From: Takakia lepidozioides
Lineage: Eukaryota; Plantae; Bryophyta
Length of the DNA stretch: 64,000 bases
NCBI GenBank assembly: GCA_030704615.1
Contig: CM060731.1
Span: 7,254,001 to 7,318,000, forward strand
Reading direction: 5' to 3'
Every line of letters starts with the position of its first letter. Within the stretch, counting starts at the first letter, position 1. The notes under the pieces are model-generated. The model searched no databases and was not told the origin of the DNA. It saw only the letters and a program-made list of their open reading frames with translations. A program made the position numbers and the translations under genes. Positions 5,924 to 64,000 of the stretch are shown piece after piece.

Positions 5924-6013
5924 AAGTGATTTGTCCTCCCTGATATGTGTCCCTTTCCCTAAGTAAGGATTAAGATTTCCCTGGCCTGGGCAGAATAATT
6001 CACTCTTCGAAAC

Positions 6014-6043
6014 CCCCCCCCCCCCCCCCCCCCCACCCCCCAC
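6014..6043. repeat. Poly-C tract (poly-G on the PP5 sense strand)
   Basis: Long C runs interrupted by single A bases, about 90 bp upstream of the PP5 ATG. Confidence 0.85.
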
Positions 6044-7050: not shown

Positions 7051-7400
7051 TGCGTCCGGTATGTAGTAGCCGTAACGGCAAAACCCTACCTGGATGGATG
7101 ATGGATGACGAATGACGAACAACTTTCTTTCAGAATTGTATGGGGCGGTTTTACTGGTATAAATCAGGTCAGACAAAGTTATTTAGTAGGCTGATCGGAT
7201 TATTTCTATTATACTGTTATTATTATTTCGATTAAAAATCTAAAACAAAACACAACTTAAAAGAAACAAATGCATGGAATTCATGCAAGCCTCGCCTTGT
7301 TGTATGAATGTGGTGGGTGCAGATGTCGGATCCATGTATCTATACACACGCAACTGACATGGATGAAACAACAGATTCAAACTTTAGATGGAGTCACTTA

Positions 7401-8545: not shown

Positions 8546-9246
8546 TAGTCGGTCTCATCGAGGGACAATGAGCTATGTTTTGTGTCAATCACGGATCAAT
8601 TGGCCAAGCTGCAAAAGATTAATGGTTGAACCACCAAAGCCATATGCACGACAACATGAGTCGCCTTTTTGCCCACGAATATTTTGAAGATAAGAAAATT
8701 AGTAGTTGTTCTGAAGTACAAATAATAAGATCTCACCTGTGAGAAGTGAAACATGTCAAGGCCCCACACCATTGCATCACTACTTGCACTCACCAAAGAC
8801 TGCACTACACCTCAAATCACTTATTGGTGGTGCCATGTAGGTAGCAATCCCAGAATGTGGACATCATAACCAAAAATCGTCAGCGAGCAAATGTGTATCC
8901 AAACCCCTAGCCAAAAGTAAGACATATGCGAATATATACCCTTTTATTTGAAAATTAAAATCGACCAACGTGGAGGGAAAGTTGATGGCTGAATACAAGT
9001 GGCGTCTACATGTATACGACGATGGCATGTCATACAAAAGTGGAAAATGCATATGGGGTGTGACGGCTTGTTTTTTGCTGGGATGAGATTCGCCCGTCCT
9101 CACAAGGGCACGTTAAACTAGGGGTGTATGAGCTCGGAAAAAGCGGGCTTTATAGCACAAGAAGAAAGATTAACATATAAAGGATCTCATGCACAACGTC
9201 TACAGAACGAACATACACATGTCCAGACACACAGAGTCTCTTCCAG

Positions 9247-32900: not shown

Positions 32901-33424
32901 GGATCTGCTAGTGAGGTTTTATTTGAATCGTCCGGCGTGGCACCATATCTCAGTACCTGTAACACTAGATCTCAATCCCATGCACTCAAACCTCCACCCC
33001 TTTTGCATAGTTGTTGAACTTTTTTCAGTATGAAGGACTTTGAAACATCCATTGGCCATCTCCCAGGAAAGCGTAAACTTCACAGGTACTTGCAATAATC
33101 AGCTGTGAGAGGGCTACATTTGTGACGCTATCATTTGTGGTTCCAAGTAAAACCAAGAGCTGATAGCCTATCCACAGGGCATCAAAATGCCATCTGGACT
33201 GTTATGCCCATTCTTTCTATAGAACTGTCTTTTGCTGATTTGATCCTATCATCTTTTGCATGTCATTTCGCATTGCTCGTAAAGCAATACAGTCCTGCCT
33301 TTCTCTGCCTGCAGTGGGCTTGTGGGCATGAACATGTCTTCTTGAACAGAGCTAGAAGACAGAACAGGAAAAGGAGTATGATAGACTCAGATATGCAAAG
33401 AATTGGGGGCACTGATTTACCAGA

Positions 33425-36400
33425 ATGCCACCTGCCATACCAGGACCAGGGTGCAAAAGTGGAGGACAGAGAAAGGTGGAGGAAAACGACGCAATGAACA
33501 TGGATGGAGGGTTCCAAGTCGATCTGATGGACCCACCTGCACCATCTCAAGACCCCTTTGTTCCGGAGGCTCATGTAGTACTTCCTCATCCCCTCCCCAC
33601 TCCTTCCCGCAGTAGAGGGGGTGCCTCAACCTCTGACCAACGATTTCTTCTTGTCTTCATCCTTGGAACCTACTTTGGACCCGACTTGCGACATGAAATT
33701 CCACGCAAGAGTGCATTGCAACGGATTGCTGTGCAGGAACCACCATACTCCCCTGATTTGCTGGGGGGGTCAGTTTTTAAACTCTCAGAGATTGAGAGCA
33801 TTTATTACTTTATCCTCAGGTATATGTTTCTGTTTCAATGTTTTTGTTTGTCACTTTGGTCATTCACTTTCCTGTTTGGGAAGGTCAGCCTTCTATTACC
33901 ACCTGGTGTGAGCCTTGTATACTTAGCAATCTTATGGTTGCTTTGAATTGTTGTAGTGCCAGACATGCTCTTTCCCTCCTTTTTAAGATGAAGATTTTCG
34001 CTATCCTTGAGGATAAGTTCTTTAAAAGTGAACAAGCTGAAGCCTGGACTCAGCTTGTATGGAGATTTTATGAACTGAGTAGGACTTAGTACCTCTCATT
34101 TGAGTGGAATTTGAAACCTTGAGTAGGCTCCATACCTCTCGACAGTAGAATCCCCTTATAGAGAACACATGTTATTCTGGGGGCATGCTGGTTTACGCAG
34201 TCCATTTTTCTTATGTGTTCAGTGGGCATTCTTCCAAGCGAGATTGCCCTTTTTGCAAGCATCAAGATAGTATCACTGCACCTTCTTGCTTGGTTATTGA
34301 TTGTCAAGACCATGCCTCTGTGACCCTCCTTGGGTCTGATCTGGGGCATTTTTTGGCATCAAATTGGTGCTGTGGTAAGGACATTCCTGGAGCATATCTA
34401 GAAAACCGGAACCAACTTTGTTCACTGAATGAGTTCCTTTAATATGGCTATCCTGTTCCTTCTCCCAACTTCTTGTCCTTTTGCTCCATGTAATCCAGCT
34501 GCAGAGTGTGTGGCCACAAGGCTCCAGTTGAATGAGTAGCTCTTCTCTCCTTCCCCCATATATCCAAGGCCATAAGGCTACGGCAAGCAAAGTCTTAAGA
34601 GTCCATTCTCTCTTCCCCAATTTATCCAATGCGCTGTAATTGTTTGAAGAAGATTACTATACTGACTACGTAATTTTGTGTCTTAGAAACTCGAATCCTT
34701 GTGCACGTGTGAAACTCCAATCTTTGTACAAGTTTTTGCATGGCCACCTCACCCCCCCTGTGCGGGAGCCACTCGATGACCAGCGACAGTTCCCTGACTT
34801 TTTCCCGCCTCAATTACACCGGCAGTCACGGTATAAGGGCACATACAAAGTTGTGGAGAGCCTCGTTTTCATCGATAGCCCCGATTCTTCCTACATCAAT
34901 GCGGATGACCTTAAGAGGTGTCTCTCTCTCTCTCTCTCTCCCATTTCCTTAGATGATGTTTCTTAGCTACACACCTATTGGCTTTGAATACCTCTTGTTT
35001 TGGTCGTTTACACTTCTCTTGTTTGTGGTAGCATGGGCTGCTTGAGCCTCAATGGTCTTCAAACACTAACTTTGTGGCCTGCATTCATGTGCTGAGACAC
35101 AACAATGCTGCAAAATGGCATTTTTAGCAAACATCATAAGACATTGACACATCTAAACCAGCTGCTTGAACGATACACTGACAAGTTAATGCTTACCCAT
35201 GAGCAGTAACAGGACTAATATGGTAAGAAATGATGGAGACTGGATCCAGCACACAAGATGACTCAGAAGGGCTCACCTCTTGACTGCAAATGAAGAATAT
35301 CGGCCCTTTCCTCAGAACTGTTCTCCTACTGACTAAGCTTTTGGCTTCACTCAGGTCATTCTCTGCACTTCACAAATTCTCTGCCCATACTAGCTGGCAA
35401 TATCTTAGAATTCTCGCGTTGGTGCTTGTGTCTGTAGGTTCAAGCAACTGAGCGGGCTGTCAGACCTGGCAGTTGATAGAGAGGAGGCCCGAACTTTTCA
35501 GCACGGACAGCGAACTGACCGTGACGAGGAGAGACAAGCCCGTTTTAATGCTGCAGCTGACGCACATGGCCACATTCTCCAGAGCCCGAGGTAAACTGTT
35601 TATTTTTCAGACATATGGCATACTTGTTGTGTCCCTTGGACATTGCATCCCATATTTAAGTTGTAGCAAGTGTTGAACTATTAGTCTGCAGCCATGTGAA
35701 ACCTTTTTGTTAACTTTACAACCAGCTCAAACCCTAGGATACAACAAAGATGCTCCAGTCATTACAGCAGTTTTCCATTGCCCAAAGCCTACCTATTCTT
35801 TCTCAGGTCAACCACATTGTCTTTTGCCAACAGGGGTCTGGGGGTAGTGGAGCATGCTCATGACCCTCGAAAGAAGAAGAAGAAGAAGGGGCAGATGGAG
35901 TTTTTGCCTGCACCGCCCATTGTACCGCCAAAAGTTGAGAGTTCCCAATGGAACCCCACCGAGGAAGTTGGGCCAGCGATGCTACTCCTGCCTGGGCTGC
36001 CCACTATAGAGCAATGGACGAATATGATCAATGCTGTGAAGCCTGCCATTATTTTCACTGGCACAGCAGCTGCTCGCCATGCAGGCCCTTTGATTGGATT
36101 GGTCGACATTGGGGTATGTGAGGATGCCTATCTCTTTCGAACTGCCCTTCCGGGTGTGAAGAAAGATGAAGGTATGACGTGGATGTGCACATGCATACAC
36201 TCTCTGTCACCCCCTTCAGTCTCTTCTGTTTGTGTGTCTGTCGCATTTTCTCTCCTTCCAATGGGTGTTCATCTCTCACTGTCTCTCAACATTGGTTTCC
36301 TAGATGATAGCTATATCGGCTCGCCCGCACTCAGTTCTGCATAACGGGATTGTCAGTGCTAGCGGAAATTCGGGACGAGTGTTGGCTGAAACCCCACAAC

Positions 36401-41739: not shown

Positions 41740-43745
41740 GATTCGTTGGGGACTGGATGACATTGAAAACAATCTATGATGCTTGATTTTTAAGCTTCAC
41801 TTCAAGGGGTCGAGTTTCATGGTCAACATTTCCTGATGCTAACGGTCGTCCATCGATAACTTCAATAGGGGCCGATAATTTCTTTCTTACGAGCGTTAAA
41901 TTGTGTTGCTTCGCAAAGTCTTTGTCAATAAAACACGCTGAAGCGCCCGAGTCCAAAAGTGCTTCTACGGAGATATGTCGATTTTGCATCCTGATCTTTA
42001 CTCGAACTGTGAAACAAGATACAGGGTCTGGAGGTAGAAAGAGACATTTTTTTGATGAGGAATTTGGAGTGTCCAGCCGCATGGTCCCTACTGTGACTGG
42101 ACATCTTCGTTTTCCGACCTCCTCGTATCGAACACTTGAGTGGTGCCCCGAGCTTTGAATCTTCTCTTGTTGGGGCAGTTTAATGCCATGAGATCATTTT
42201 CTCCGCAATAAAGGCATAATCCATTCGAGCGCCGTCTTTGTTTTTCATGTGGCGTCAATGGCTTGAATCGGACAACATCAATTTGCACAGGATCATTACC
42301 GGATGTCTGATGGATCGTTGTATTTGGTGTCGTAGTAGCAGCGGCATGGTGCGTCGTCGACCATCCGGATCGTTTTTCTTGACGTCTTTCGAACAAACGA
42401 TTATCGCATGCAATGACTTGGGTGATGAATTCGCTCAGTGTACTCACGTTTGACATTGTCAGCAATAAATCTTTAACATCATCTTTTAGGCCACATCGAG
42501 ATTGACTAATGAGGCTCTTCTCATTCCAGTCAAGGTCGCACGCAAGTTGTCGAAATTCGACAGCACAAACGGAAGTTGGACGTGCTCCTTGTTGAAGATT
42601 TCGCATCTTTGTCTCTGCAACTCTCTCTCTATCATTCTCTCCAAACGTTGCAGTGAACTCGGACATGAACGCTTCAAAATTGTATAGTAAATGCAAATTT
42701 TTCTCTAATAGCGGTGCAAACCAAGACAGGGCAGTGCCTGATAGAAGGGTGCCCACGAATCCCACTTGAATACCTTCATCAGAGTAGTGTTATGGATGTA
42801 GTCGTAGGAACAATCGTACTTGTTGAACAAAACCGTGAAATCTTCATCTCGTCCCATCAAATTTCTCGGGCATGCTGATCTTTGGTTCCCTTGTAATCTG
42901 TTGAAGATTTGGAGGAACCGTTGCAGTAAGATTTGTTGTAGTAGGGACTCGTAAGGTTGAAGATCCATTGTTCGACTCTTTCAACTCTGAAATTTGTTGT
43001 TGCAAATTGTTGAAAGCATTGCCAAGGTCTTGAGACTGATCAGCTTGTAGTTGGGCAGTAGAAGCACGAAGTTCTTGCATCTGGAGCTGAAGGCTCTGCA
43101 ATGGGGTGACCATTTCCGCAAATGTGCCTTCCATCTTAACTAACTAAAGAACAAACTTTAGTCTCGCCAAACTCTCAAGGACGAGAACATGACTGAACAC
43201 AAACAAGAGATAAGACTAGAGGTACAAGGCTAGACAAGAAGTCAAGGTCGGCGTGGCCGAATGCATGATGAGTAAATAGGAATCAAGACGATCTTTATAA
43301 CAATGAACAAGAGTACAAGACATTGGAACACGACTTGAATACTTGAATGCTGGAAACTGGACTGGAGTACCAGATACTGGAAACTGGGCTAGGATACTGG
43401 GAACTGGAAACAAGAGTAGCTTGAACTGGTGTTGGCGAGACTGAAGAGTGTCCAGTCTCGCCTCCTATATATACTGGCTACTAAGAAGCTTCCCTAAGAA
43501 GCTTCCCCTATGGAGGTTACTTGCTGGAGAAGTTTCCAAGATTAAACAAAGGTTTCTTGATGGAGAAGCTTCCTTAAGCAAATGATGTATCTTGATAGAG
43601 AAGTTTTCTCCAAATAAAGCTTCCTGAGTAGTTTCCCAAGTTATTTCCCAAGTTACTCTTGGTAATTTGATAAACTCCCGGTAACTTGGTAAGTAATGGT
43701 AAATCATGATAAATCACGATAAGTCATGGTAACTTTCGGGGGAAC
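41740..43745 (-). mobile_element. Truncated Ty3/Gypsy element (leader/LTR remnant, gag, protease)
   Basis: gag from 43134 with stops (PEKFDGTR, LLSGTALSW, LQQG, knuckle CLYCGEND..NCP); protease ALLDSGA in the -1 frame; RT absent; LTR edges not resolved. Confidence 0.85.
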
Positions 43746-44645: not shown

Positions 44646-45295
44646 TGCGCAAGGAGCCCGACATCATCTTAGAAGCGATGATATTGACAGTGTTGTCGCT
44701 GCCCACAAGGCGTTTACAGCCCAGCCGGGGGATGGTCCGTTAAAGGTAGAGGAATTGAATCGGGTGAAGGAGTATTTGGAGAGCATTGGGCAGCCTGACA
44801 TGCCACAGCAGAAAAAAAAAAAAAAAAAAAAAAGGGTGGGAGACTTACACGAGTCCATCAGGAGAGCCAAGCCTCACATGATGATGACACGATGGACGAA
44901 CCAGCTGTTGCCAATACCGAGCTTGACGATGCCAGAACTTCAAATCCTCTTGTCATCACTATTACTGTAGATGGAATCGACGGTTTGGTTGTTCCAGAGC
45001 CATTGGAATTCACTCGCAGTTTTGCGAAAGGATTGATAGGGCAAATAGAGAATATCACCAAACCGCAAATTTTTTGAGAATTCTGGCCCACAACGATTTA
45101 AGGAAGAGGGGCCGATCAGTTTCCCAAACGCATCCCAGGTTGGGGTTGACAACTGACCACCATGAGGTGGTTGCCACAAACCAAGCCTTCTTTCTCACTT
45201 AGCCTCCCCAAACACGCCACTAAACTCAATGGCAAACAACCAAACCCTGCTGGTTCCCAGCCCTTGTGAGCACTCATTCAAGCACTCCCCTCATT

Positions 45296-45741
45296 GGCCA
45301 TAGCATCTGTCTTAGAGCCTATTCCAGCCCTCTACACCTGTTGCTTCAAGAGTTGCGCTCCCTTCAAGCTTGAAGTTGAAACCCCAACTCACATAGGCCC
45401 TACAAGTGCTGTTCTTTCACTCCAAGTGGAAACCAGCCCTAGACCTTCCGTTCTAGCTCTCTAAGGCTTGAAAACAAGAGCCTCAATGGGCTGAAGGCAT
45501 GCTCCACACATGCCCCACTCTCACCATAAGAGAATCAGCTCCTTTGCTTCATTTCTTGCACCCACAAACCTGATAATACAAGCTTCAGCAGGCTGAAAGC
45601 ATGCTCTACATGCCCTACAGGGAAACCAGCCCCTTCCTTCCTTTCTTGCACTCCCACACCTAAAAGTGCAAGTCTTCACCAGGCTGATAGCATGCTCCAC
45701 ACATACATTGCCCTCACATAAGGGAAGTCAGCCCTTCCTTG
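45296..45741 (-). mobile_element. Inverted fragment of the methyltransferase-Gypsy family leader
   Basis: Near-identical reverse complement of about 59546-60003; continues leftwards (to about 45110) into sequence missing from the right-hand copy. Confidence 0.9.
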
Positions 45742-49790: not shown

Positions 49791-51109
49791 CAAAAATTAA
49801 TTATTAGAACTAGACTTTTCGAATAAAAGAAAAGTCTAGGCAGATTTTTGCTTGGAAGTTACCTTCGATCCTCCCTCCGCCTGTTGGTTTTAAGTGGATT
49901 CACTCGCAACGACGCAATGGCGCGAGCGTACGCTCACGCCAGCTGACGTGGCGTGAGCCTGATCCCACGCTGACGTGGCGTGAGCGTCATGTCAGCATGC
50001 TGATGTGGCAGCAAATGATGACGTGGCACTGTCCGTCATCTGCCACGTCAGCATTAACATGCGCCGCCTATAACCGAGCTATATCATTGCACCGCCGACG
50101 AATTGATGTGAATTACACATTTCAAATCATGGTCGTCCACATACCACATTGCATAGTTGATGCTACCCATGTGTTGTATCCCGCTGCAATAGAGTATCGA
50201 CCTCGTTGAAACTCATAGTGGCTTGGTGAATGAAGTTGTCACGTTTGGGATCGCAAACCATCCTCTTCAAAAATATGAAATACAAATGTTTGCAGGGTAT
50301 GAATTTACCTCTCTTGCCCAAACTGGTTGATAGCATATTCACAAAATCAGGACATGTGCAATTGGGGTAATTGGAAACCGTGATGTCGTAGGTCCTGTCA
50401 TGAACAGCAGATGTGGAAGTGATGATTGTGAATACCCGACCATATCCTGGATTGGGTACTTCCGTGGTGCTTCCAACACGAGCTTGGAGCATTCTTGTGG
50501 ACTCCACTTTGCCAAAGTGTTCAGCGGTTGGAGGGAAACGCCGAACGAGCTTTCCATCTCGTTTGGTTGGCCACAAGTCAGGATTTGTCGGGCGGACCCG
50601 GGAGGACGCAAAAGTAGTAGCACATGCATGGAGTTGGAGTTGTCTCGCAAGGGAAAACACTACAACAGATTGCGGCTTTTATGACTCCCATGGGTGCGCA
50701 GTCATGACAGATTTGTGGCAGAAATGCCATTTGCAGTCGTAAAATGCTTTTGAAGTCATAATGCAGGTCTGGAGAAGGCGTATATGCGACTGCATGGCTT
50801 CGGACTCTGTGCAACACAGGTCAAACATGTTTGACCACGAATATTGGCATGGCAGATATGACTACCAGTCACGGTCATGGCTACACTAGAATGACGTGTG
50901 CATATTGCAAGACAGACATATGACTTCATGACTCTCACTCTAATGCATTATGCCAGATCATCACATAGATGAATCACTACATGACTACACGTGTCGACAC
51001 ATGCTTTTCTGGTTATATATATAATATATGAGTATTTATATCTTAAAAAAACGGAGACTCTTACCACTAGAATGAATTAAAAAAACCCAAAAAAACAAAG
51101 ATTTAAAAA

Positions 51110-51320: not shown

Positions 51321-52990
51321 TGAAAAAGGGGCTTTTAGGGTTTACAAAAAGGTTAAAAAACTTAAAAAGTTGCCCATCACAGTAGCGTGAACAGACTTAG
51401 AGCGAGCGGGAGGGAGAGAGAGAGAGGGTTGGCACTTAGAGCGAGCGAGCGGGAGAGAGGGCAAACATGCATGGGAAGCCCGCAGTTGGATCAACCTTCG
51501 CATCTGGAGCAAGCAACCCTAGAAACGCTAGGGTATGTGTGCGAGGAGGTTTCGGCTGGGAGCCCGCCGTTCTTGGGAGAGTCAGCTTCGTCTTAGCAGG
51601 CCGTGTTTCAATCTCTACCCGCTCGGCCCTGATTTTACAGCACGAAGCAGAGCTGGCATGAGTTTCTAAAAGAACCTTCACGATGGTGGGACAACCGCAA
51701 TCGCAAGGTGTGGTTTTTTCTTAATGTACGATGTGAAGAAGTTTGTCCATCCTGCAAATGTGGGTTGGCTCTCCTGTTAGTACCATGATTTGGTATTCTT
51801 CCTGATGTTTACAAGGTTCTTGGGAGAGTTAGCTTGGTCTTAGTAGGCCATGTTTCAATCTCTGCCCACTCAGCTGCACCGTGGTGGTTCTCACTGACCA
51901 ATCCGACATTACCTAACTACAGACACAAGCAGCACACACGAGAGGTCATCTTGGGTTCATGTTCAGTCAAATCCTCCATGGGTCATGACACAAGGTCGAG
52001 GACAATGTGGTGAGGGCACCTTCTTCTTCGACCTATTTCAGCCTATTTTGCCCTCTCATCAGACTCGGCCCTGAATTTGAATCATGGAGCAGAGCTGGCA
52101 TGAGTTTTTTTAAGATCCTTCACGAGGGTGCGACCGCAATCGCAAGGTGTGGTTTTTTTTTAATGTACGATGTGCAGAATTTTGTCCATCCTGCAAATGT
52201 GGGTTGTTGGCTCCTGTTAGTACCATGATTTGATATTCTTCCTGATGTTTACAAGGTTCTTGGGAGAGTCAGCTTGGTCTTAGCAGACCGTGTTTCAGAT
52301 GCTAGTAGGAAGGCAAGGATGTATGCATAGATAGCTGAAGGATTTTGTGCAGAGGCATAGATAGCTGAAGGAGCAGGGATAGAGTGTGGGCCCAAATTCG
52401 TCCAAGAGGGCCGGATTTCAAGCTCCATTATTTCAGTGTCATCCATTCAGCCAGGGATTTCCTGGTGACATTGCCAAGGCTTTACTCGCAACACGATGCT
52501 TGTAAAGCTTCCTTAGCTTGAATGCTGATTATGCTTGAATTATTAGGTTTGTAAAGCCAGTTTTGAAATTTTCATGGTAATCAGCTCTCTTGAAAATCTG
52601 TAGGTTGCAAGCCATTTACAGCGGGCCGTGGGTGGACTGGAAGACAGCCATTGAAAGTCCTGGTGCAAGTTAATACCAGTGGAGAGCAGAATAAGCTTCA
52701 TATGCCCTTTTGGTGCTAGTTATCTTCATGTATGGTACTGTTGAACACCAACAATCTTTTGGTGAGATTCTGTCTTGGTGCACATGTCTGATAAAGAAAG
52801 ACGGTAATGTTTGTTCTGAAACCTGAAGGCGTGAAATGATTCAACACAACAAGAGCATTACGCGTGTCACAGTACAAGCTGTAAGAAAGCAAGAGATACA
52901 TAGTTATACAGTCAAACAGACAACTATCAGTTTCTGTGGAATCTCTTGCCAATGGCAGGATGGGTTGGGAATAGCCAAGTCAGGAGGTGA

Positions 52991-53481
52991 ATGCCTGTCA
53001 AATTACCACATGTCCTTTTGAACACTGCCCCTGCCCTGGTGGACATGTACGCCAATTGTGGGTGCATTGAGGATGCAAAGGGAGTGTTCAACACTGTGGC
53101 TGAACGAGATGTGGTGTTGTGGAGTGCGATGCTTGCTGGGTATGCACAGCTGGGGTGCGGGATGGAGGCTCCAACCTTTGAGAAAATGAGGGGGAAGGGG
53201 TGAAGGCCGCCGACATAACGTTTGTGTGCGTTTGCAGTGCGTCTGCAGCCCTGGAAAAGGGCAAAGAGATCCCTGGTGACATCATCAAATCTGCAATTGT
53301 ACCAGATGTCATCCTGAACATGGCTCTGGTGGCCATGTATGCTAAATGTGGGAGCATTGAGGATGCCAAGGGAGTGTTCAACACTATGGCTGAACTAGAT
53401 GTGGTGTCGTGGAATGCGATGCTTGAAGGGTGTGCAGAGCAGGAGCGCGGGATGGGGCTTTGGACACCTGAAAGCAAATGA
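52991..53481 (+). pseudogene. Captured PLS-class PPR gene fragment
   Basis: ALVDMYANCGCIEDAKGVFN, DVVLWSAMLAGYAQ, ITFVCV, ALVAMYAKCGSIEDA, DVVSWNAML; frameshifted, no E/DYW end. Confidence 0.88.
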
Positions 53482-56400
53482 TGGAGAAAAGGATGAAGGT
53501 ACCTTCTTCAACATATTTCATCCTGTTTTCCCTGCTAGTGTTTGCTTTGACAATTCTAGGCTGTCATTGTCAGCTGCTAGCAGCAAGGCGAGGATGTATG
53601 CATGATTTGTGCAGAGGCATGGATAGCTGAAGGAGCAGGGATTTTGTGTGGGTCCAGATTCATCCAAGAAGGCCAGATTTCAAGCACAAGATTACCTGTG
53701 ATTCCCTGTGGATCAATAGCTACAAGAAACCTGCATGGGTAGATGGTCAACTGGGAGCAGCGGCACAAGTGATAAAATCAGGCACTGCTAATGAAGGCAT
53801 CTTCTTCAACACATTTCACCCTGTTTTTCCCTCTTATCAGAATCGGCCCTAAATTTACATGTTCAATTCTGCAAGTTAGCTGGTTGAGTGAATCTAGTTT
53901 GGAGTGACTTTGACATGATACTGCCAATGTGACAACAGGAAAGTGTCAAAAAATAGGTAACAGAGATGAGGAGAAGCTGTGGAATGAATACTTATCTGAG
54001 CCCAGTCACTGATGGGTCAACCGGGGCAGAAAGGTGAATGCCTGCTACATTTCAGAGAGTAGCAGACGCAATTCAGCATAGGAACTAGTGTGCTACGCTG
54101 AGTTGGGTGTTTCCTAGAACAAATGTAGGCTGTCATTGTCAGCTGCTAGCAGCAAGGCAAGGATGAATGCTTGATTTGTGCAGAGGCATGGATAGCTGAA
54201 GGAATAGAGATAGAGTGTGGGTGACGCAGGGTGCTGGGCAATGGGCAAGATGTCTTTGTATAAACGTGAGTGACCTTCCTATCATCCTGGGTTTCATTTT
54301 TAGTGCATGTTTCTTTGTGAAGTATCTGACGACTTCGCCAATACACACCAACCTTTTTGCTTTGGTTTGTTTAGGACATGGGATAGAAGTTACCATAAAC
54401 AACACTGGCATTGGTTTTTCATATATGGTATTAGATAATTCTCTTAATTGTTTCCGCCTTGGCAGGTTGCTCAGTGACCTTCCCTGGACGCTTTGGAGTA
54501 TAGCGAGTGAGTGTCTCACAATGCAATATTGGTTGGTGCATCTTATGCAAGAACTTGGAAAACAAACAAATGTCCTTGCTGTAGTAATTCTTAAAGCCAT
54601 GCAAGCCGTTTTTGATGGGTTGCAGATTGATGGAATACATGAGTAGTTAGAAGATTTTGGGTGAACACTTTTCAAAGTGTTATAGTTAGACAAAATAATT
54701 CACATGAGAACATGCGACTATTTAATGTATTTTTAGATCGCAACAAAAATGATAATGATAAATAGATTGGTAAATAGAGATGGTATGCAATCTCTTGGTT
54801 TTGCTCAGCTTGTTGCAGTTATGTCTTGCTGCCTTGTTCTCTTTGTATTATATATTATATTTCATTGTTGTAATAGACATGTACATGACTGCTATCATAG
54901 TCATAATAATGACTACATCTATTTTCACTCTCCAATAGTACTACACCACGTGGCAGAAATACAAATATGTAAAAAAATAGCAATACACCCCAAAAAAACA
55001 CCCATCATGACACATGTCAATCTGCTGATGGACCACGTGTAAAAACTGCAACGCGCCACGTGTTGCAACCGGATTAGCACACCTGTACTCATAGTTCGCA
55101 GTCATGGAGAGCTAAACACTCTGCCACGTGTCATTTCCTGCATCGAGCACGTGCCACTCTTGCACAGCCGCTGACATGGACTACACTGTCCGTTCAGTCA
55201 TTCAGTAAAGCCAGCGTGTATGACTACCCCCACAGCTGCTCTGGCGCCACGTGACAGCCAGCCTAGAGAGTCATATCTGCCATGTCACAACTGACTAGGT
55301 CTTTACGTCTGCAGAGTCAGAAAGTCGTAAATGGCTTCCATGACTGCATTTGCAGTCATAACACAGAGACGTAAAAGCCGCAATTTGTTGTAGTGAAAGC
55401 CTGCCTCCTCCAGTATTTCAATCTCCTGAAATCTGAGATGTGTTCCCACCTTCACGGGCCAAACGGTTGGAGGAGATGGCTTCATCACTACGGAAGGATG
55501 GACAGTTCCATGCACACATCTGGCACAATCATCCGCGCAGAACCAGAACTTGTGGTTCTTGGCTTCTGGTTGACCGTATGGACACATCAAACCCGTGAAA
55601 GTCGAAGCAGGAGTTCGGGCACCACCTCTGGATATAGATGAAGTGCACTTCTCGAAATTAGTTGCCCTGATCGCTGTACATTTCACACGAGACCCTACAC
55701 TTGTACGTTCTATGTGCCAAACGTGGTCGGGGCATGCAGACTCAAGCACATCAAGGGGGTTGTTTCTCTCCTGCACCATTTCAGTGGCACTGTTTGATGC
55801 TGGAGCTTGCCGTCGTGTTGGAGGTTCCTCCACAATGGAGGTTCCGGACATGGAGCTGTCATGCAGGGGAACACAAGGCTTCGAGAAGTTATCACGGTCA
55901 GCCTTGTGCGAATCGGAATCCGAACCAGGTGGAGTGTTCAATTTCCTCTTACAGGAGCCGAATCTCTCATCCCCTTCAAGATGTGGAACTCTAGAAACAA
56001 GTGGCGTTCCCTGGGCATACATGCTCACCGCCCGTGCTATCTTGATTGGATCCCCAAATCTGTTTGCAGCACGCAACATCAACTCCCATTTGTCCGGACC
56101 CTTGCCACCAACCCCACCTCGCAAGAAATCACGGTATCGGGTTTGTTGTTGCAAGGCACATATCAAATCATCTGTTGTTGCCACATACAAATCCCGACCT
56201 CGTTTCCCAGACTGCTGCAACTATGCGTTGTGCACAGTTTCTGCCAAATTGTAAGATGGCATGTCCGCCATTTCCTCAATGGACATGTTCTGCAAAGTGG
56301 AGAACCACACTTCAAAACAGTGAACAGAAAACAACATAAAGAAAGCGATGACACAATAAAATGGAAAGTAAATGTATGAATAAAGCAAGAAATATAAGCC

Positions 56401-59400
56401 TCGTACCACTGGCATGGCTGCCCCCCACTGTCTATACCAGAAGTGCCAAAACGCCAGCCAATCTTCCAATGCTCTCATACTCTCAAGTGATGCAGCTCCA
56501 GAAGAGAACCACCAGGCACGAATTGTCTGGAACAAAGTGTCCGCCTCCTTCATTGTTCTAGCATCTTTGTACTTTTTGCACAATTTACGGTGCTGAGTCT
56601 AGATCTCTGGTTTGTATGTTTTTCCAGAGATTGTGTCCAATGGAATAGACATGTACGCTCTCTTCCTCGCATTGGCACTTTTGGGTCGCCCGATCCGAAG
56701 ACAATACGAACAGCATTGAAATTTGCTTGAGCACTATCCGCCATGAAACCTGCGAAATTTGGAGATGGCAGCCCATGGCAGCCCATGACACGTATCAGGG
56801 AATTCCACATGAGCTTCTGGGATTCCGTATCCTCGGATTGCATGTCAAAAACTGCAATTGTCATAACTCGTTGGTACACTGGATCGTAGACATGACAAGC
56901 CATTGTCGTCCAATCCTTCACTCGTTTCACATGATCAAACATAAGAAAACAGTTATGCAAGTCCCCAATCTTCTGCATCCGCTTCACGAGGCTAACCCCA
57001 CTGCCCTCCCCAACAGTCGACATTTTGAAAAGAAAAACTTTGATGGCACCTTGACCTGCGAATACATTGTCCTGGATGTAATCGTACTTGCTCACTCGTT
57101 TCAACTCCAAAATGTTGTCTATGTAGCCTCTGATACCAGAGCCCATTCTTAATGCATTGATCTGATGCCGAATGTTAGGTGAACTCAAAGTGGAGAAATG
57201 ATCCATGACCAGGTCCAATGCTGCACCGTCAAGTTTAGTCCCCACAGAATCCCCTTCACTCAAAATATGGCTTTCCAAGAAGGACTTGCTTGTGCCAAGA
57301 GCAATTGCAGATGTTGTTGCGGATAGGTTTCTCCCGAACTCCTGTTTAATCAACCTCGATATTGTCTCAACACTCTCCCTGTAATCCCCCTTCGAGACAG
57401 GATGGTTATGGAATCCGAAATGCACACAAGCTCTTGTCATTGTTTTCAAACGGTGGACAACATAGTACATTCTTGCTCCGCAGAGCGCCAAGCAGGATGG
57501 CACAAGTTTGCAGAATTTGCAGACGAAAGTGTTTGCCGGTGGTGGGGCAGTCCCAGGCTGAAATGGATTTTCCGCCTAACCCTCCCATTCGCTTTGATTC
57601 TGAACCCCAGACTGAAGAAAGTGTCTGCAATTCAAATTATCACACCTAAGGTGTCCATTGCAAACTGTTCTCCTGAAAACAAGCTTGTCATCATTTTGAA
57701 TATTGGATGTTTTTGTTCTGCACCACGGGTGCCCGTCGTGTTTCTTGTCCATTCCATGCATCATGATTGTTACACCTCCAACTCGCGGAGGAGGAGGCAG
57801 CTCGAATAGGATATCGCCATCAAAAGTCTCTGGCAAGAACTTCACAGGCACATGCTTCAAAGATTCCCAATCAATTCCTCGCAACTCACTTTTGAATCCA
57901 GCCATTCCTCCCATCGCCCGTAATTTTGGAATGACACTATAAATCTCTTCTTCATCAGCTTCTCCAACCACAGTAGGAAGGACTGGATTTGGAATTTCAC
58001 TTATGTCATCATCGGACGAATCCGAAAGCTCAACGATTGGAGTGGAGGACGTCTGTTCTTTTTTCACCACCACCTCCCTCTTGTCTTCAACGACCGAAGC
58101 AGCAGTCCCGGGCGTCACATATGACCCAAGGGACTTTCGCCGAGGCTCTCCAAGTACTCTGTATCGACCAAGGCGCACTCTCCATTGGCTGACATGAGCC
58201 GTCTCATCACGGTTTTGGAAAGAGTATTTCAACAACTTCCCTTTCAAATCGTACACCTCTTTCTCCAAAAAGATGGAGCCATTCTGAAGCTGAAAACGGG
58301 TAGCCAAGACATGTTCCAGAACAATTGCAAATCCATTGTCAAGGACTTCCTGGGAGAACGGCAGTGGTTTGTCATCAGAGAAGAACTCCGTCTCAGAGGA
58401 AGCCATCTTCCTTCCTCGCGTATGTCAAGTTATTTTACCACTAGTGTGAAACTAGCTAGGAAATAGCTAGCTTTTACATATTGACATTTGGGATTGGCCC
58501 AAGTGTCAATCCAGGGGTCAAGGCAGATTTAGGCCCTGGAGTGGTTATCTTCACGGCAAGCGCGGGAGGCTCATCTTTCTCGAGTTGAGCCTCACCGCGC
58601 CTAACTATGGCGCCGTAGTGTGGATTCCCCATGGCGTGGGGTGCACTTAGCTTGACTTGTATTTGAGTGATGAGGTTATATATGCATGAGTTTATGCTTC
58701 AGATTTGTGAGCTCGTGCTTGTATTCTTCCTCGTTATCACTCGAGAAAGATCAGCTCGAGTCTTTGAGTGCCAGGTTCGAGTTGTTTTGTAGCACTTGTG
58801 TTTTCATGAGAAGCGGTTCAGCCTAGAGTGCAGGGATCCGTGCATGAGCCTATCCAAAGTGGATAGAGTGCAAAGGCGACCAGGTTGCAGGTTTGCAATG
58901 GATAGAGAGGCGGGTAGCCTATGTTGAAGAGCGGCGTTGCATAGCTCAACGCTATGGCAACCAAGTTTGGGCTTCTAGTGTGAAGCGGGGGAGATGCTGG
59001 TCTCGAGTGGGTGAACTGGTGGTCGTCTTCTTCAGCTGCAAGCCAAGTTAAGGAGCTGCAGCAATGTGGAGCTGCGAGGGTGTTAGATGTAAGTCACAGT
59101 TATCGGGAGCTCCAACCTCAAGCTCATAAGGAGGTATGAGTGAAGAGAGATGGCTGATTTCTCTTGTATGCAAGCCAATGCATTTGTGGCTATATTGAGT
59201 TGGGGGTTTCAATCTGAAACTCCAGCGGTATGAGGGCTCTTGTCATGGCAAGAGCAGGGCTGGAATAGGAGCTAAGAGGTGCGGCAAGGCCATGGAATGT
59301 GCACCTAGGGTTTCAGAGCTTGGAAGAAAAGTTCTTGCACCACAAGAGGAGTGTCTTGTGGCTGGAAATGTAAGCCTTAGGGTTTCAGGAGCTTGGCAAG

Positions 59401-59462
59401 GGTTGTGGAGTGCTTAGTCTTGTCTTAGAGAGCATCAAGGAGCCAAGGAGCCAAGATAGGGG

Positions 59463-59830
59463 GCTGATATCTCTTGTGTGAAGAGGTTGCATGTGTGGAG
59501 CATGTATTCAGCTCATTGAAGCTTCCATCTTCAAGCTTGGAGGGCAAGCAAGGAAGAGGGAAGGGCTGACTTCCCTTATGTGAGGGCAATGCATGTGTGG
59601 AGCATGCTATCAGCCTGGTGAAGGCTTGCACTTTCAGGTGTGGGAGTGCAAGAAAGGAAGGAAGGGGCTGGTTTCCCTGTAGGGCATGTGGAGCATGTTT
59701 TCAGCCTGCTGAAGCTTGTATTTTCAGGTTTGTGGGTGCAAGAAATGAAGCAAAGGAGCTGATTCTCTTATGGTGAGAGTGGGACATGTGTGGAGCATGC
59801 CTTCAGCCCATTGAGGCTCTTGTTTTCAAG
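59463..59830 (+). repeat. Four degenerate ~100-bp tandem repeats in the Gypsy leader
   Basis: Units start GCTG at about 59463, 59566, 59667, 59758 and share CATG(TG)TGGAGCATG..TCAGC..TGA.G. Confidence 0.75.
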
Positions 59831-61030
59831 CTTTAGAGAGCTAGAACGGAAGGTCTAGGGCTAGTTTCCACTTGGAGTGAAAGAAAAGCACTTGTAGGGC
59901 CTATGTGAGTTGGGGTTTCAACTTCAAGCTTGAAGGGAGCGCAACTCTTGAAGCAGCAGGTGTAGGGGGCTGGAATAGGCTCTAAGACAGATGTTATGGC
60001 CAAGGAGAGTGCGACGCCGGGGGTAAGACCAGCTGAGGTGTTCAGGCTGGCAGCTACACTCTGTGAGAGTGGGGAGGTTACTTCATCTTCTGCGGAGATA
60101 GTGGGAGGTGTAGTGCCGGAGGGATCCTCGGATTTGAGGGTCAAGACTGCCACGGCGGCGCCAAGGCAAGCTGCAGCTGCCAGGTTGATGGAGCTGCCAG
60201 CTAGGCCAGCCATTGAGCGCGCCATGGTGACACCTGGAGTCGTCATGTTAGACAACCAGGATGACATTTTCTGTTTGAGTGGACCGGCATGCAAGAGGTA
60301 CCAGCCACTACGGGTCTTGTTGGACTCGGAAGCTCAGCCATTGATGCTGGGCAGAGTTGCTATTGCAGGCTTGGGCCTCAGGGAGGCGGATATGGAGCCT
60401 TGTCCTTTCCAGATACAGACGTCTCTGGGAGGATCGGAGCAGGCTCGGGGCATGACACAGCGTGAGTTGGCTATCAAACTACGGCCGGATCACCCTACAG
60501 ATGGCTCAGTGATGTGAGCCAAGGCCATTGTGACAGACGCGGTCTCATATGATGTCCTGGTTGGTGGGGCAGTGTTGTACCCCATGGGCTTCACCCTGGA
60601 TTTTTGGGAGGAGTCAGCCTCTTATAGGCCTGCATGGCAGTCAGGGGAGGGCCGGCGTGTGCAGCTCCCTATGACTTTCATAGGAGGAGTTGCGGTTGCC
60701 CATCGAGGCAAGATGCCGACACTAGCAGCATTCACAGCGGCAGTGAGTTGGCCTAGAGAGTTGCTTGAGGGCAACGCTCATTCAGAGGATGTGCCACCTC
60801 CGGGAGAGCAGGATGACATGTATGGTATGGCGGAGTTGCCTACCATGGTTGCTCAGACTCCATTGTGGGGCACGAGCAAGGATTTGCAGCGGGATGCTGA
60901 TCAACGGGTGCAACAAGCCTGGGTGGAGGCTTTTGTACCGTCAGGAGAGGAGGAGAGTGCGGGGATTGCACCAGGACCACCTCAGTTGTCTCCATTGGAC
61001 ACCACACCTATTGTGTGGCAGTATCCGGAT

Positions 61031-61990
61031 GAAGGCATTTGTCTTCTCGACTTGTTTGGCGGGATCAGCACTGGATTGGCTGCTGTGTTACAGGCAGGTG
61101 TACGAGTTCGGCGTTACCTGTATGTGGAGAGGGATGAGACTGCACGACATGTTTCACTTCGCCATGTTGCTCAGTTGGTGCAGCGGTACCCTGAGTTGTT
61201 GTCGGTGTCTGCAATTCGTGGATATCAGCAGGCCTTGCCAGCAGACATTTTGTTGCTGGGGGCGCAGGATTTGGAGCGGGTTGGCTTCATTGATCTGATA
61301 GTGGCAGGTTGGCCCTGCCAAGGGCATTCATCAGCCGGGCATGGCAATGGATTGCGAGACTCGAGGTCGGGTCTGTTTTGGGAGATGGTGCGGGTTTTGC
61401 GCCACTTACAGCTTCATCAAGCTGTATCTCCAGCATACATCTTGGAGAATGTGCCACTGATGGGCGATTCTCAGGCCAGGGTGATGGCCAGTGTGCATCA
61501 AGTCCAGTCGTGGCTTGGATCAGCAGTATTGCTAGATGCAGCTACAGTGGGGTCACGGGATCATCGTCCACGGCTATGGTGGACTAACTTGATGCCACCC
61601 GCACTGCTCAAGCGTGCATTTGATGGGGTGCAGCGGCCAGCACATCTCAGAGTGGATAGCATTCTGGACACAGGGAGGCAGTCTCAGCGTGTGAGACACG
61701 ATGACCGTTCGCCTTTGGCAGTGATCAACAAGGTGGGTGAACCACGAGCAGCATTACCTACACTGCTCAGCTTCCCAGGATCGCATGCTTTCCGGGATAG
61801 TGGACCTGGCCTCCTGTGGGATGCTCGGTTGCAGTAGTTAGTGGAGCCTAATGTTGACAAGCGTGAGCGGGCAATGGGTTTTACCACTGGTACCATGGCG
61901 GTGTCGTTTCTTTATGAGGCATCACGTCGTTAAGTGTTGGGGCAAGCAATGGATCTCAATTGCTTGACCTGGATTATCAGCTTGGCTCTA
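61031..61990 (+). pseudogene. DNMT3-like C5-cytosine DNA methyltransferase domain within Gypsy pol
   Basis: Motif I LDLFGGIS (from 61046), II VERD, IV GWPCQ (Cys at 61316), VI LENV (Glu at 61445), VIII HRPRLWW (from 61562), IX RERAMGF, X LGQAMD (from 61937); two in-frame stops (61835, 61931). Confidence 0.93.
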
Positions 61991-64000
61991 GCTGAGCAAC
62001 GCAGAGTGCGGAGTATACTTCCCTCGATGGTCTCTCTGCCTACCGAGACGGTACAGGCAGTGAGTGGGGGCGAGCATGTGAGGACCACGGGGTGCATGCA
62101 TCCATGGCACACGTGGGAGGTGCTCGAGGTTCAGAGGGAGTTGGCAGCCAAGGCGGCTGTGATGGATGAGGTTGGGGATTCTTCCCGGGTTGAGGAGGTC
62201 CTCAAGGATGAGATGATGGGGCAGGATGAGGCCTTGTCATTGACTGAGCAGGCAGGGAGTACTGCTCAAGAGGTTGCAACATAGCAACCACTGGACGCGT
62301 CCTCTACCTCTAAGCCCACTGGACTTAAGGTTGCAGTTACGGAGGACAATTAGGAGCCTGACATTGGATCCATTGTCACCGGAGGAGAGAGACGACGTAT
62401 ACGGCGGTTCCTGAGGGCTTACAGGAATTGCTTTGCCTTCAGTTTGAAGGACTTGGGAGCACTGAAGGGTCAAGAGATCCATATTGAGTTGGCCACTGAC
62501 ACGCCAATCTTTCAGAGACCCTATAGATACAGTGACATGGAGAGGTCTTTGATTCAGATGAGGACTCAAGATCTCTGGGAGGCAGGTTTGGTGGAGCTCT
62601 CTGGTGGAGAGTATGCTTCAGCCACAATGATGCCAACCAAGAAGGATGTCTATGGCAATTGGACGGAGAGACGTATGTGCGGTGATTACCGGCCTGTAAA
62701 TCGTCAGACCAAGTCCGATAAGTATGCCATGCCAACACCAGAGGAGATCTTTGATGCCATCGGGCATGCTAAGGCCTTTAGCACTTTGGATTTGCGATCC
62801 GGATATCACCAGTTGCCAATCAAGGAGGCGGACAAGCAGAAGACGACATTCTGGGGGATCAATGAGCACGACAAGGATTGCCTATATCAGTGGCGGTTCT
62901 TACCATTTGGGCTTAAGAATGCTCCTGCAGAGTTTTCAGAGAGTCATGGATAGGATTCTAGCAGGGGTGGACTTTGCTCGGTGCTACATAGATGACATCA
63001 TCATCTTTAGTGTTACGATGGAGGAGCATGAAAGACACCTTCAGGTGGTATTGGAGCGCTTGAGAGCGCACGGATTGAAGTTGCATCCGGGGAAGTGCAA
63101 GTTTTTCCACAACCAGATTGAGTATCTGGGTCACATGATATATCCTGGAGGATTGGGGGTACAGCAGACTAAGGTAGAGGCCATTGCACAAATTCCACGC
63201 CCCACGGATGTGAGCCGAGTTCGAGCTTTCATGGGGTTGGCAAACTATTATAGACGGTTTGTCAAGGGATTTAGCACCATTGCAAAGGCTCTAACCAAGC
63301 TGACCAAGGTGGACCAGGAGTGGCTGTGGGAAGATGAGCAGGAACGAGCTTTTCAAGAGCTCAAGGTGAGGTTGACCTCGGCGCCTATCCTGAGACGACC
63401 TATCAGGGGACGTCCCATTTCAGCTGCATACGGATTGGTGCATGCTAGGGCTTGGAGCGGTGCTCACACAGGTGGATGATGAGGGAAGAGAGTTCGTAGT
63501 GGCTTATGCTAGCCACTCGAACAACACTGCAGAGGCTAAGTACAGCTCATATGAGGGAGAGTGCTTAGCTGCAGTGTGGGCCGTGGCACACTTCAGGTGC
63601 AATCTATACGGCAATCTTTTCACCCTTGTCACGGATCACCAACCACTCAAGTGGTTGATGGATCAGACAAGCTTACGGGGAAGCTTACACGGTGGGCACT
63701 CATACTCCAGAAGTATGACTTTCAGGTTGTGCATTTACCGGGTTTGGTCAATCGGGATGCGGATGGATTGAGTCGCAATCCATGCACGAGCCAACAGGAT
63801 GACACTGGAGCTCGGTGGCATGGTGAGACGGACGAGGAGATGGTGCCGGGATGGCACGCATCTGCATTTTTGTGTATCTTGGCATCGGGAGGTTAGGTTG
63901 GACCTACTACAGGGATGACTGTAGACGGAGTGTCTGAGGACCCTGAGGCTAGTGATGAGCCAGGTGGTGCCAGAGATATACATGAGGATTCGGCTGTGTT

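Follow-up and report, generated by a model that had tools for sequence, protein, structure and literature searches.

A bryophyte Ty3/gypsy family with a DNMT3-type methyltransferase at the end of ORF1, ahead of a conserved and probably leaky stop

Main finding

Bryophytes harbor a family of Ty3/gypsy retrotransposons in which a C5 cytosine methyltransferase (MTase) closes the first open reading frame, ahead of a conserved in-frame stop codon. In intact relatives, the stop is likely leaky, and the MTase would be made at Gag dose. Judged from sequence, we consider it rather probable that the enzyme would methylate the cDNA of the element itself. The copy under study lies in a 64,000-nucleotide stretch of Takakia lepidozioides DNA (GCA_030704615.1, contig CM060731.1, positions 7,254,001 to 7,318,000), here called the window. 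The new elements of this finding are the land-plant hosts and the placement of the MTase in ORF1 before a conserved stop; a DNMT3-bearing gypsy element is already known from Klebsormidium. A literature search found no description of a DNMT-bearing Ty3/gypsy element in land plants.

The window copy

The window copy is a dead, decayed, and gag-deleted member of the Ty3/gypsy family (Table 1). Protease, MTase, and reverse transcriptase (RT) share one frame on the forward strand (59966-62953), interrupted by exactly five stops at 60515, 61835, 61931, 62282, and 62351. The original prediction described a single frame broken by five point stops. All five were confirmed in frame, but the one at 62282 is family-conserved and does not represent decay. 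The predicted order of protease, MTase, RT, and, after frameshifts, RNase H (RH) also stands, with Pfam matches to RT at 62354-62950 and 62700-63476 and to RNase H at 63394-63768. Stops 60515 (protease), 61835, and 61931 (both MTase) are absent from intact relatives, and stop 62351 and a frameshift near 62933, both in RT, are absent from other copies. Integrase is known only from relatives, in which the part that would lie beyond the window edge holds integrase and a PHD finger, then the polypurine tract and the 3' repeats.

Table 1. Features of the element in the window
Feature	Position	Strand	Basis
5' terminal repeat and 5' untranslated region, candidate	58504..60009	+	weak
Gag-side region, end	60010..60262	+	loose read ends, tblastn, length estimate
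Aspartic protease	60263..60640	+	catalytic Asp 60323; homology to relatives' sequences
DNMT3-type C5 cytosine methyltransferase, unrearranged	61022..61990	+	Pfam, PDB profile search, motifs
Variable C-terminal linker of ORF1	61991..62281	+	in frame; dN/dS 0.32-0.76 in ten pairs
Conserved in-frame stop with CARYYA context (TAG CAA CCA), predicted ORF1/ORF2 readthrough site	62282..62290	+	relatives
RT and connection	62291..63416	+	Pfam; comparison with other copies
RNase H	63418..63780	+	PF17917 E 1e-27; frameshifts near 63417 and 63662
RNase H-integrase linker	63781..64000	+	from relatives
Isolated additional fragment of the upstream region	45290..45738	-	97% identical to 59559-60007

The ATG at 59996, previously taken as the start of the element, does not mark it: other copies have gag-frame sequence upstream, and the ORF1 of relatives extends further 5'. 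Sequencing runs X1, X2, and X5 contain loose ends just before 60010, where other copies have different, gag-frame sequence, and the ORF1 proteins of full-length relatives match the window in tblastn only from residues 531-575 on. From these two observations and a length estimate, some 1.6 kb of gag has been deleted directly upstream of 60010, and the zinc knuckle with it. The protease retains a degraded D-S-G motif at 60323. Its segment alone gives no Pfam match in the window but is 41-58% identical to the corresponding region of related loci. Among relatives, this region matches Asp_protease_2 above the cut-off in P0119 (E 7e-6) and below it in L020 (E 2e-4).

The DNA at 58504..60009 likely comprises the element's 5' terminal repeat and 5' untranslated region, although this is a weak inference. 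It begins with TGTCA, as do the 5' ends of relatives. A read-depth peak lies at 58416-58816, and a tandem array of four copies of about 100 nt occupies 59461-59834; the 5' untranslated region of L003 likewise has four occurrences of the array's 9-nt motif. An unrelated repeat upstream of 60010 was considered and dropped in favor of the element's own 5' region, for which alignment to the Sphagnum-type repeat A gives only z 1.9-3.4, no higher than the best of 300 shuffles.

Base composition was also surveyed. CpG and CHG observed/expected ratios reveal no element-specific signature (CpG 0.54 in the element versus 0.52 as window average), and this CpG depletion, no different from that of the window, was counted against the proposed mechanism.

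The methyltransferase domain

Profile ranking, fold match, and motif positions all agree with the DNMT3-like MTase with ordered motifs that had been proposed. A PF00145 search, suggested earlier as a check, returned a match on segment 60518-61834 (E 4.3e-13; score 49.8 bits, cut-off 22). The motifs follow in canonical order at 61052, 61124, 61307, 61445, 61562, 61865, and 61937, which we take to be motifs I, II, IV, VI, VIII, IX, and X; the catalytic PC lies at 61313-61318 and ENV at 61445. In a PDB profile search, the nearest solved structures were DNMT3A/B (DNMT3A, E 4.7e-18), ahead of DRM-type enzymes (5e-9 to 3e-5), HaeIII (6e-7), and a tRNA MTase (1.5e-4). The predicted fold of the MTase in relative L020 matches DNMT3A at E 7.7e-15 (TM 0.60/0.71), with the target-recognition region poorly modelled (pLDDT below 50 at 206-264). 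By similarity ranking, as distinct from a tree, the domain resembles DNMT3 most, ahead of DRM, DNMT1, and bacterial enzymes.

In 47/47 MTase domains, the hand-picked set of element sequences that also forms the MTase tree, the catalytic Cys is unchanged, as are E and N of ENV. In between-family comparisons, the MTase is under purifying selection. Its dN/dS is 0.07-0.14 in between-family pairs, which lies within the Ka/Ks <0.2 range used for the KnitGypsy-Dnmt3 lineage. In three pairs among L020, L021, and L022, the value is 0.10-0.12, compared with 0.10-0.12 for protease and 0.05 for RT. Two recent, decayed Sphagnum-type pairs reach 0.42-0.65, as expected from post-insertion decay, and these values give no evidence of selection. 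Comparisons involving the window copy are near saturation.

A conserved stop between MTase and RT

The stop at 62282 is a conserved feature of the family and not a decay mutation. An in-frame TAG/TAA followed by CAR-YY occupies the homologous position in 21/21 related loci, which represent 16 distinct sequences from five subfamilies (under 80% identity). Exact CARYYA occurs in the window and in 5/21 loci, the remaining 16/21 reading CAR-YY-C; by subfamily, it appears in five of six, window included, despite differing flanking protein. In the largest subfamily (Sphagnum type, 16/21 loci), the context is CAA CCC, a single-base departure from the consensus, and an ATG lies three codons past the stop. 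Across subfamilies, about 100 to 143 codons separate MTase and RT.

Twenty of the 21 loci are metagenome loci. Of 33 such loci fetched, 13 without an RT start were excluded. All of the remaining 20, which span the MTase end and the RT start, carry TAG/TAA followed by CAR-YY, against a background of 77/6873 TAR triplets (1.1%). The full CARYYA is present in 4/20, against a background of 0.4%, and also in L034, the twenty-first locus. Eight of the 13 excluded loci were inspected: L001, L025, L028-30 (one insertion counted thrice), and L032 have the same stop context, and L007 and L009 are rearranged. Marchantia and Calypogeia ORF1 gene models terminate at the homologous spot.

Type I (TMV-type) readthrough sites consist of an in-frame UAG/UAA followed by CAR-YYA, a context that by itself drives readthrough in plants, with TMV values of about 10% in vivo and 32% in a reporter (PMC2754532, PMC2194720). 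The stop at 62282 is therefore predicted to be leaky and likely read through in a programmed manner. Folding of the 90 nt past the stop, computed without a shuffle control, gave no structure common to five copies.

Relatives and architecture

Intact relatives encode Gag-PR-MTase, the stop, and then RT-RH-integrase-PHD finger. This layout refines the earlier view of an MTase inside pol: the domain is indeed part of the element frame, but as the last domain of ORF1, separated from RT-RH-INT by the conserved stop. It occupies the same position in relatives of six subfamilies, which bears out that it is integral to the Ty3/gypsy element and not a nested insertion. The PR-RT-RH-INT order with a DDE (rve) integrase is found in L020, L022, L003, and P0119, and the window displays it as far as RH.

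The relatives have TG...CA ends and a G-rich (polypurine) tract (PPT) before the 3' repeat. Two identical LTRs are not present; instead, repeat A stands at the 5' end and repeat B at the 3' end. L019 reads A...PPT-B-A-B, such split direct repeats are found in L019 and partly in L014 and L015, and the B-A junction occurs in L019, L020, L022, and L034. All three relatives with both ends have 4-bp target duplications (CACA in L014, AAGG in L019, ATGT in L007). The nearest solved relatives of the PHD finger are those of CHD4, PHF12, PHF21A, KAT6A, KDM5, and UHRF1. Such fingers are readers of the unmodified H3 tail, a role played in DNMT3 by the ADD domain.

Occurrence in land plants, as originally claimed, is documented by named proteins of Marchantia, Calypogeia, and Sphagnum in chromosome-scale records. 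At least 15 Marchantia polymorpha proteins of the family are annotated as 'hypothetical'. Separate MTase and RT trees, the comparison called for at the outset, recover the same bryophyte grouping, with the window copy among bryophyte elements (UFBoot 100). A flanking gene assigns the host to Streptophyta. RT trees used only matches covering 330 residues or more (125 rows in one, 40 chosen rows in another).

The wider lineage is very diverse: at an E value of 1e-30 or better, 518 clusters (50% identity) match the MTase profile. MTase and RT share one continuous ORF in many algal or unnamed relatives (e.g., Closterium P0149). Among the best 150 representatives, 78 have the MTase ahead of integrase, following RNase H where RNase H is present. 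Gag-level dose is thus not required in the wider lineage. In a sister Ty3 lineage, this same slot between PR and RT is filled by an adenine MTase (P0214). Two scans of viral contigs came back empty, and a scan of prokaryote genomes gave one locus out of 56 pattern matches. This locus is a circular contig of 9.3 kb from a cyanobacterial bin, 73% alike to L020 over 7.5 kb; it was read as mis-binned plant or algal DNA and not as a bacterial gene.

Comparison with known systems

Among described elements, KnitGypsy-Dnmt3 of Klebsormidium nitens (de Mendoza et al. 2018, PMC5890265) comes closest. As described there, it shares the gypsy domain set and an intronless, unrearranged DNMT3-type domain under purifying selection, and, going by the legend of Fig. 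4c, it may also share a DIRS-like arrangement of terminal repeats. It differs in its algal host and in an MTase placed in the Pol ORF, whereas the bryophyte MTase ends ORF1 before the stop in land-plant hosts. The main text of that paper contains neither the word 'PHD' nor 'readthrough'. It calls the MTase an acquisition in the K. nitens lineage; our sequence trees point to a wider lineage spanning Closterium, Coleochaete, liverworts, and mosses. The broad clade of C5-bearing RTs takes in two K. nitens RTs as well (UFBoot 85; backbone support 27-58), but neither protein itself holds an MTase.

SymbioDIRS-Dnmt3 of dinoflagellates is likewise a retroelement-borne DNMT3, which, by the account in PMC5890265, methylates CG de novo in yeast and was proposed to act on cDNA. 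However, it belongs to a tyrosine-recombinase element and, according to that paper, was acquired independently, whereas the bryophyte family has a DDE integrase and 4-bp target duplications. DAM-LTRs and EpiLTRs also combine an LTR element with a DNA methyltransferase and a chromatin reader, but use an adenine MTase and/or an enzyme sister to DNMT4, together with chromodomains (bioRxiv 10.64898/2026.05.21.726589). They are stated there to be distinct from 'streptophytes (Gypsy-DNMT3)', and the words moss, Marchantia, and bryophyte are absent from that preprint.

TMV, SIRE1, and MuLV share the UAG/UAA plus CAR-YYA signal upstream of a polymerase frame (PMC2754532, PMC2194720). In SIRE1 and MuLV, the stop lies at gag/pol or pol/env, whereas in the bryophyte family it follows PR and MTase, which would give two enzymes Gag-level abundance. 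Plant Ty3/gypsy elements also include Phygy and the chromoviruses (Neumann et al. 2019, PMC6317226), the latter with a histone reader at the integrase C-terminus. That reader is a chromodomain, in contrast to the PHD finger of the bryophyte family, which lacks paired LTRs; the passages of PMC6317226 consulted mention no methyltransferase. The family was set apart from Phygy solely on its target duplications, 0/3 of which follow the NCGN preference described in that source. No Physcomitrium name occurs among the 120 RT matches listed.

Proposed mechanism and alternatives

The position of the MTase upstream of a readthrough-type stop changes its expected dose to Gag level. In intact relatives, most ribosomes would stop after the MTase, and a minority would read on to produce RT and integrase. 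ORF1 would be packaged as capsid precursor, and the protease would free the MTase within the particle. The enzyme could then methylate cytosines in new cDNA, presumably in CG context as DNMT3A and SymbioDIRS-Dnmt3 do, prior to insertion by the PHD-bearing integrase. Each insertion would carry its marks from the outset, and these would either camouflage it as host DNA or silence it in advance.

With the same layout, the MTase might instead act in the nucleus on integrated copies or the target site, for self-silencing or insertion marking guided by the PHD-integrase. Kinship of the PHD finger with H3-tail readers, whose role matches that of the ADD domain, and an MTase directly before integrase in many relatives, fit this reading. 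We nevertheless hold it unlikely: the stop places MTase and integrase-PHD on separate chains in the bryophyte clade, and a Gag-level dose would better suit a particle role. Another scenario retains the MTase as an ORF1 product but has ORF2 arise, as in Ogre or Tca2, by splicing, by re-initiation, or from a transcript of its own. Three gene models (P0005, P0007, P0025) splice across the stop, the Sphagnum-type subfamily has its ATG at +3 codons, and the Tca2 in-frame stop need not be read through, according to passages in PMC2754532/PMC2194720. Against this, the three models differ in their borders, and frame and CAR-YY are kept across six subfamilies, while the first in-frame Met is not conserved in position (codon 3, 14, 48, 85, or 117 in five copies, sometimes within RT). 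This scenario appears less likely still.

A domain kept for RNA methylation, nucleic-acid binding, or particle structure also has some precedent, as PMC5890265 reports a negative yeast assay for the Klebsormidium enzyme and proposes RNA methylation for a Symbiodinium LINE enzyme. Its authors call the Klebsormidium result inconclusive, and human DNMT3B failed the same assay. With all catalytic motifs invariant, DNA enzymes as nearest structures, and a far weaker tRNA MTase match, such a role is improbable. Finally, no contig spans the whole 12 kb, but the chance that the copy reflects one-off capture, contig chimerism, or contaminating algal DNA is negligible. For the family, these readings are refuted: other copies carry the domain, with the same order in dozens of loci and in the chromosome-scale Marchantia, Calypogeia, and Sphagnum records; MTase and RT have matching summed depth in run X1, each at 0.9-1.1 million; and the window copy groups with bryophyte elements.

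Around cDNA methylation within the particle, a broader history can be drawn, which we regard as possible but somewhat short of an even chance. An old, diverse, and unclassified green-plant Ty3 lineage with a DNMT3 writer and a PHD reader would have moved the writer between two polyprotein slots. Its land-plant branch would have put the writer before a TMV-type leaky stop, yielding capsid-dose MTase per particle, pre-methylated cDNA, and split-repeat, junction-cutting integration.

Implications

Why a transposon carries an enzyme that normally silences transposons has been an open question since 2018. The known DNMT carriers come from algae that do not lend themselves to manipulation, whereas the present family also occurs in Marchantia polymorpha, where methylomes, RNA-seq, and methylation mutants exist and the proposed reading can be tested. 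The conserved stop provides a concrete prediction on the dose and place of action of the MTase. For genome annotation, DNA methyltransferase gene counts in bryophytes include transposon copies, and gene models that bridge the conserved stop carry probably false introns. If the proposed mechanism is true, the many annotated copies of Marchantia would represent an overlooked source of de novo methylation.

Reading frame and decay of the window copy

The Ty3/gypsy element carrying a DNMT3-type C5 methyltransferase (MTase) is real, family-wide and present in land plants. In the window, translation yields a single frame over 59966-62956 with five stops (60515, 61835, 61931, 62282 and 62351). Pfam matches DNA_methylase in the second frame segment (E 4.3e-13), RT in the two segments after it and RNase H past a frameshift. 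The MTase motifs stand in canonical order. Frame, domain order, motif order and profile match thus agree with the original prediction. Its five point stops are all present, although 62282 is conserved family-wide, at the homologous place in relatives; its aspartic protease lies in the frame, but with a degraded D-S-G motif.

The window copy is dead and incomplete. Full-length ORF1 proteins (Gag-PR-MTase) match it only from residue 531-575 onward, therefore ~1.6 kb of gag is missing, and its integrase lies past the window edge. The frameshifts near 62933, 63417 and 63662 are absent from contigs of related sequencing runs, whose letters before 60010 differ from the window. Tentatively, we assign ~58504-60009 to the 5' end of the element itself.

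Other window features, and terminal features of related elements
Feature	Position	Details
Methionine gamma-lyase, host gene	23767-25041 (-)	intronless
Phosphoesterase, host gene	1933-6205 (-)	with introns; PP5-like by eye
Host exons resembling plant alpha-crystallin-domain IDM-type proteins	33416-36344 (+)	by eye; no Pfam match
Foldback or MITE-like element	7399-8547	nested inverted repeats 135 nt (97%), 78 nt, 88 nt; 528-nt core
Unrelated Ty3/gypsy fragment	41774-42900 (-)	Retrotrans_gag and protease; CpG o/e 1.07, far higher than the window's 0.52; possibly young or unmethylated
Dispersed 80-440-nt repeats	51569-54254	very high read depth, also in run X13 (presumed RNA)
High-copy decayed reading frames, DNA-transposon-like	55303-58424 (-); 50163-50678 (-)	Cys/His-rich motifs, presumably SWIM/CxC-like (by eye); no Pfam match; retroelement's likely 5' end ~90 nt upstream of first Met of 55303-58424 frame
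Repeat A	5' end of relatives	~335 nt
Repeat B	3' end of relatives, behind polypurine tract	~112 nt
ACA-NN-TGT junction of right and left ends	L019:10346-10360; L020:8655; L022:8234; L034:7050

Family distribution and host

The order gag-PR-MTase-RT-RH-INT holds in 33 metagenome loci, wherever the parts are present. The domain recurs across these loci and in named Marchantia, Calypogeia and Sphagnum proteins, which disposes of the one-off insertion that the original prediction had weighed against itself. Word-based searches returned 26 longer homologues (Marchantia polymorpha 15, Sphagnum fallax 1; organism given for these 16) and 68 of similar length (Marchantia 7, Calypogeia fissa 5, Sphagnum 3, bacterial bin 1; organism given for these only). 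No vascular-plant or Physcomitrium name occurs among the 26 and 68, a kind of search that cannot establish absence. Summed depth in run X1 is equal for MTase (0.92-1.09 million) and RT (0.95-1.06 million). Although no measure of copy number, this suggests that most copies retain the MTase domain.

Separate RT and MTase trees recover the same bryophyte group. The RT tree joins the window copy to L003, Calypogeia, Marchantia and Sphagnum-type copies (UFBoot 100), and the MTase tree supports the group at 100. A Coleochaete scutata transcriptome protein adjoins it in the RT tree (UFBoot 97), and a wider C5-bearing clade (UFBoot 85) takes in RTs of Closterium, Klebsormidium and Haematococcus; backbone support is low (27-58). 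Judged from the element only, the host of the window copy would be a bryophyte; the flanking methionine gamma-lyase points to Streptophyta. Family elements L034, P0054 and P0253 occur within genome bins assigned to bacteria (Synechococcales, Obscuribacterales), annotated as bacterial proteins, and are likely mis-binned.

Methyltransferase type and selection

When a profile built from 21 family members is compared with solved structures, human DNMT3A comes first (E 4.7e-18), followed by DNMT3B/C and a DRM-type enzyme (5e-9; DRM2 3e-5); the bacterial HaeIII and HhaI reach 6e-7 and 5e-6. The structure predicted for L020, an intact relative, agrees with the DNMT3A fold at E 7.7e-15 (mean pLDDT 72.7, with residues 206-264 unresolved). 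All 47 MTase domains compared share the catalytic Cys as well as the E and N of ENV.

The MTase domain is maintained by selection in the family. Pairwise dN/dS among L020, L021 and L022 is 0.10-0.12 for the MTase, 0.10-0.12 for the protease, 0.05 for RT and 0.37-0.60 for the linker. Between families, MTase values are 0.07-0.14, from near-saturated pairs, one of them saturated; two pairs of recently decayed copies give 0.42-0.65.

A conserved stop between the open reading frames

The stop at 62282 is part of the element's design. Twenty loci contain the end of the MTase together with the start of RT. In every one of them, the first in-frame stop ahead of RT occupies the homologous position and reads TAG/TAA followed by CAR-YY, against a background of 77/6873 for TAR then CAR-YY. 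L034, from a prokaryote-genome scan, shows the same stop and context, and together these loci represent 16 distinct sequences in five subfamilies. Exact CARYYA occurs in the window (TAG CAA CCA), L003, L020/L021, L022 and L034; in the 16 loci of the Sphagnum-type subfamily the stop is followed by CAA CCC. The stop splits the frame, therefore intact L020 consists of an ORF of 1369 codons and a second, in the same frame, of 1047 codons.

According to the available text of PMC2754532 and PMC2194720, CAR-YYA is by itself sufficient for readthrough in plant viruses such as TMV, at ~10% in vivo. The varying place of the first Met after the stop in five copies (codon 3, 14, 48, 85 or 117) speaks against re-initiation. 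Liverwort gene models terminate at the same spot. Splicing across the stop is a possible alternative: three gene models skip it, and their borders differ from one another.

Ends and integration

In relatives, the last domain of ORF2 (RT-RNase H-integrase) is a PHD finger (E 2.6e-10; six loci). Its nearest solved structures are the CHD4, PHF12, PHF21A, KAT6A, KDM5 and UHRF1 fingers, which are known as readers of unmodified H3 tails. The ends are not paired LTRs: L019 is arranged A...B-A-B, and L007 and L011 stop after a single B. A 4-bp target duplication flanks 3/3 loci with both ends. The B/A junction is near-palindromic in four loci, inside the 3' repeats; the assembly of L034 is circular, 9158 bp long, and contains a single junction of this kind. 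Integrase cutting of the B-A junction or B-B recombination could each produce the A...B form. N-T-G-N appears in 4/9 distinct 4-nt target-site flanks (L002, L007, L011, L023/L024), too few for a preference.

Related methyltransferase-bearing elements

Of 518 representative clusters (E 1e-30 or better), the best 150 divide as follows: the MTase precedes integrase in 78, with RNase H ahead of it in 60; in 14 it follows protease or precedes RT; and in 58 the MTase is the sole domain seen. MTases placed after RNase H form one clade (support 99, smaller MTase tree). A large Ty3 polyprotein group is ordered RT-RNase H-C5 MTase-integrase-PHD (P0198, P0219, P0221, P0226, P0234, many of P0355-P0498). 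Its RTs cluster with Haematococcus RTs, so its hosts may be chlorophytes; the available literature on such elements yielded no description of it. A sister Ty3 lineage bears an adenine methyltransferase, Dam (P0214, P0216, P0233, P0237). P0214 has Dam between protease and RT, its RNase H and integrase are separated by a PHD finger, and its lineage is probably related to the DAM-LTRs of a 2026 preprint.

The available text of de Mendoza 2018 (PMC5890265) describes KnitGypsy-Dnmt3 of Klebsormidium nitens, which probably shares a lineage with the bryophyte family and would work alike. The passages of that paper and the three supplements covered do not mention Marchantia. Sarre 2025 (PMC12344493) and the 2026 preprint (10.64898/2026.05.21.726589) refer to 'streptophytes' and, in their available parts, name no bryophyte element. 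Such elements go unmentioned in the accessible portions of PMC10952607, PMC6453930, PMC11982613, PMC6317226, PMC12885004, PMC9516144, 10.1101/2021.02.12.428880 and 10.1101/827881. In keeping with the original prediction, no land-plant description was found in the accessible open literature, although supplements to it may list such elements. The readthrough-type stop after the MTase and the PHD integrase are likewise undescribed in the literature examined, as far as its available text extends.

Proposed replication cycle

Beside the observed layout, conserved stop, catalytic residues and selection, we infer a scheme of dose, packaging, release and cDNA methylation. ORF1 would be translated at full dose and ORF2 through occasional readthrough of the stop. 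Gag-PR-MTase would assemble into a particle, where the protease would release the MTase beside nascent cDNA. This cDNA would then be methylated before the PHD-integrase inserts the copy. Three points count against the cDNA-methylation proposal: the stop is dispensable in the wider lineage, CpG observed/expected reveals no special CpG loss in the element, and the enzyme from Klebsormidium showed no activity in yeast, as the available text of PMC5890265 states. Should methylation of the cDNA occur, the benefit to the element may be disguise or self-silencing.
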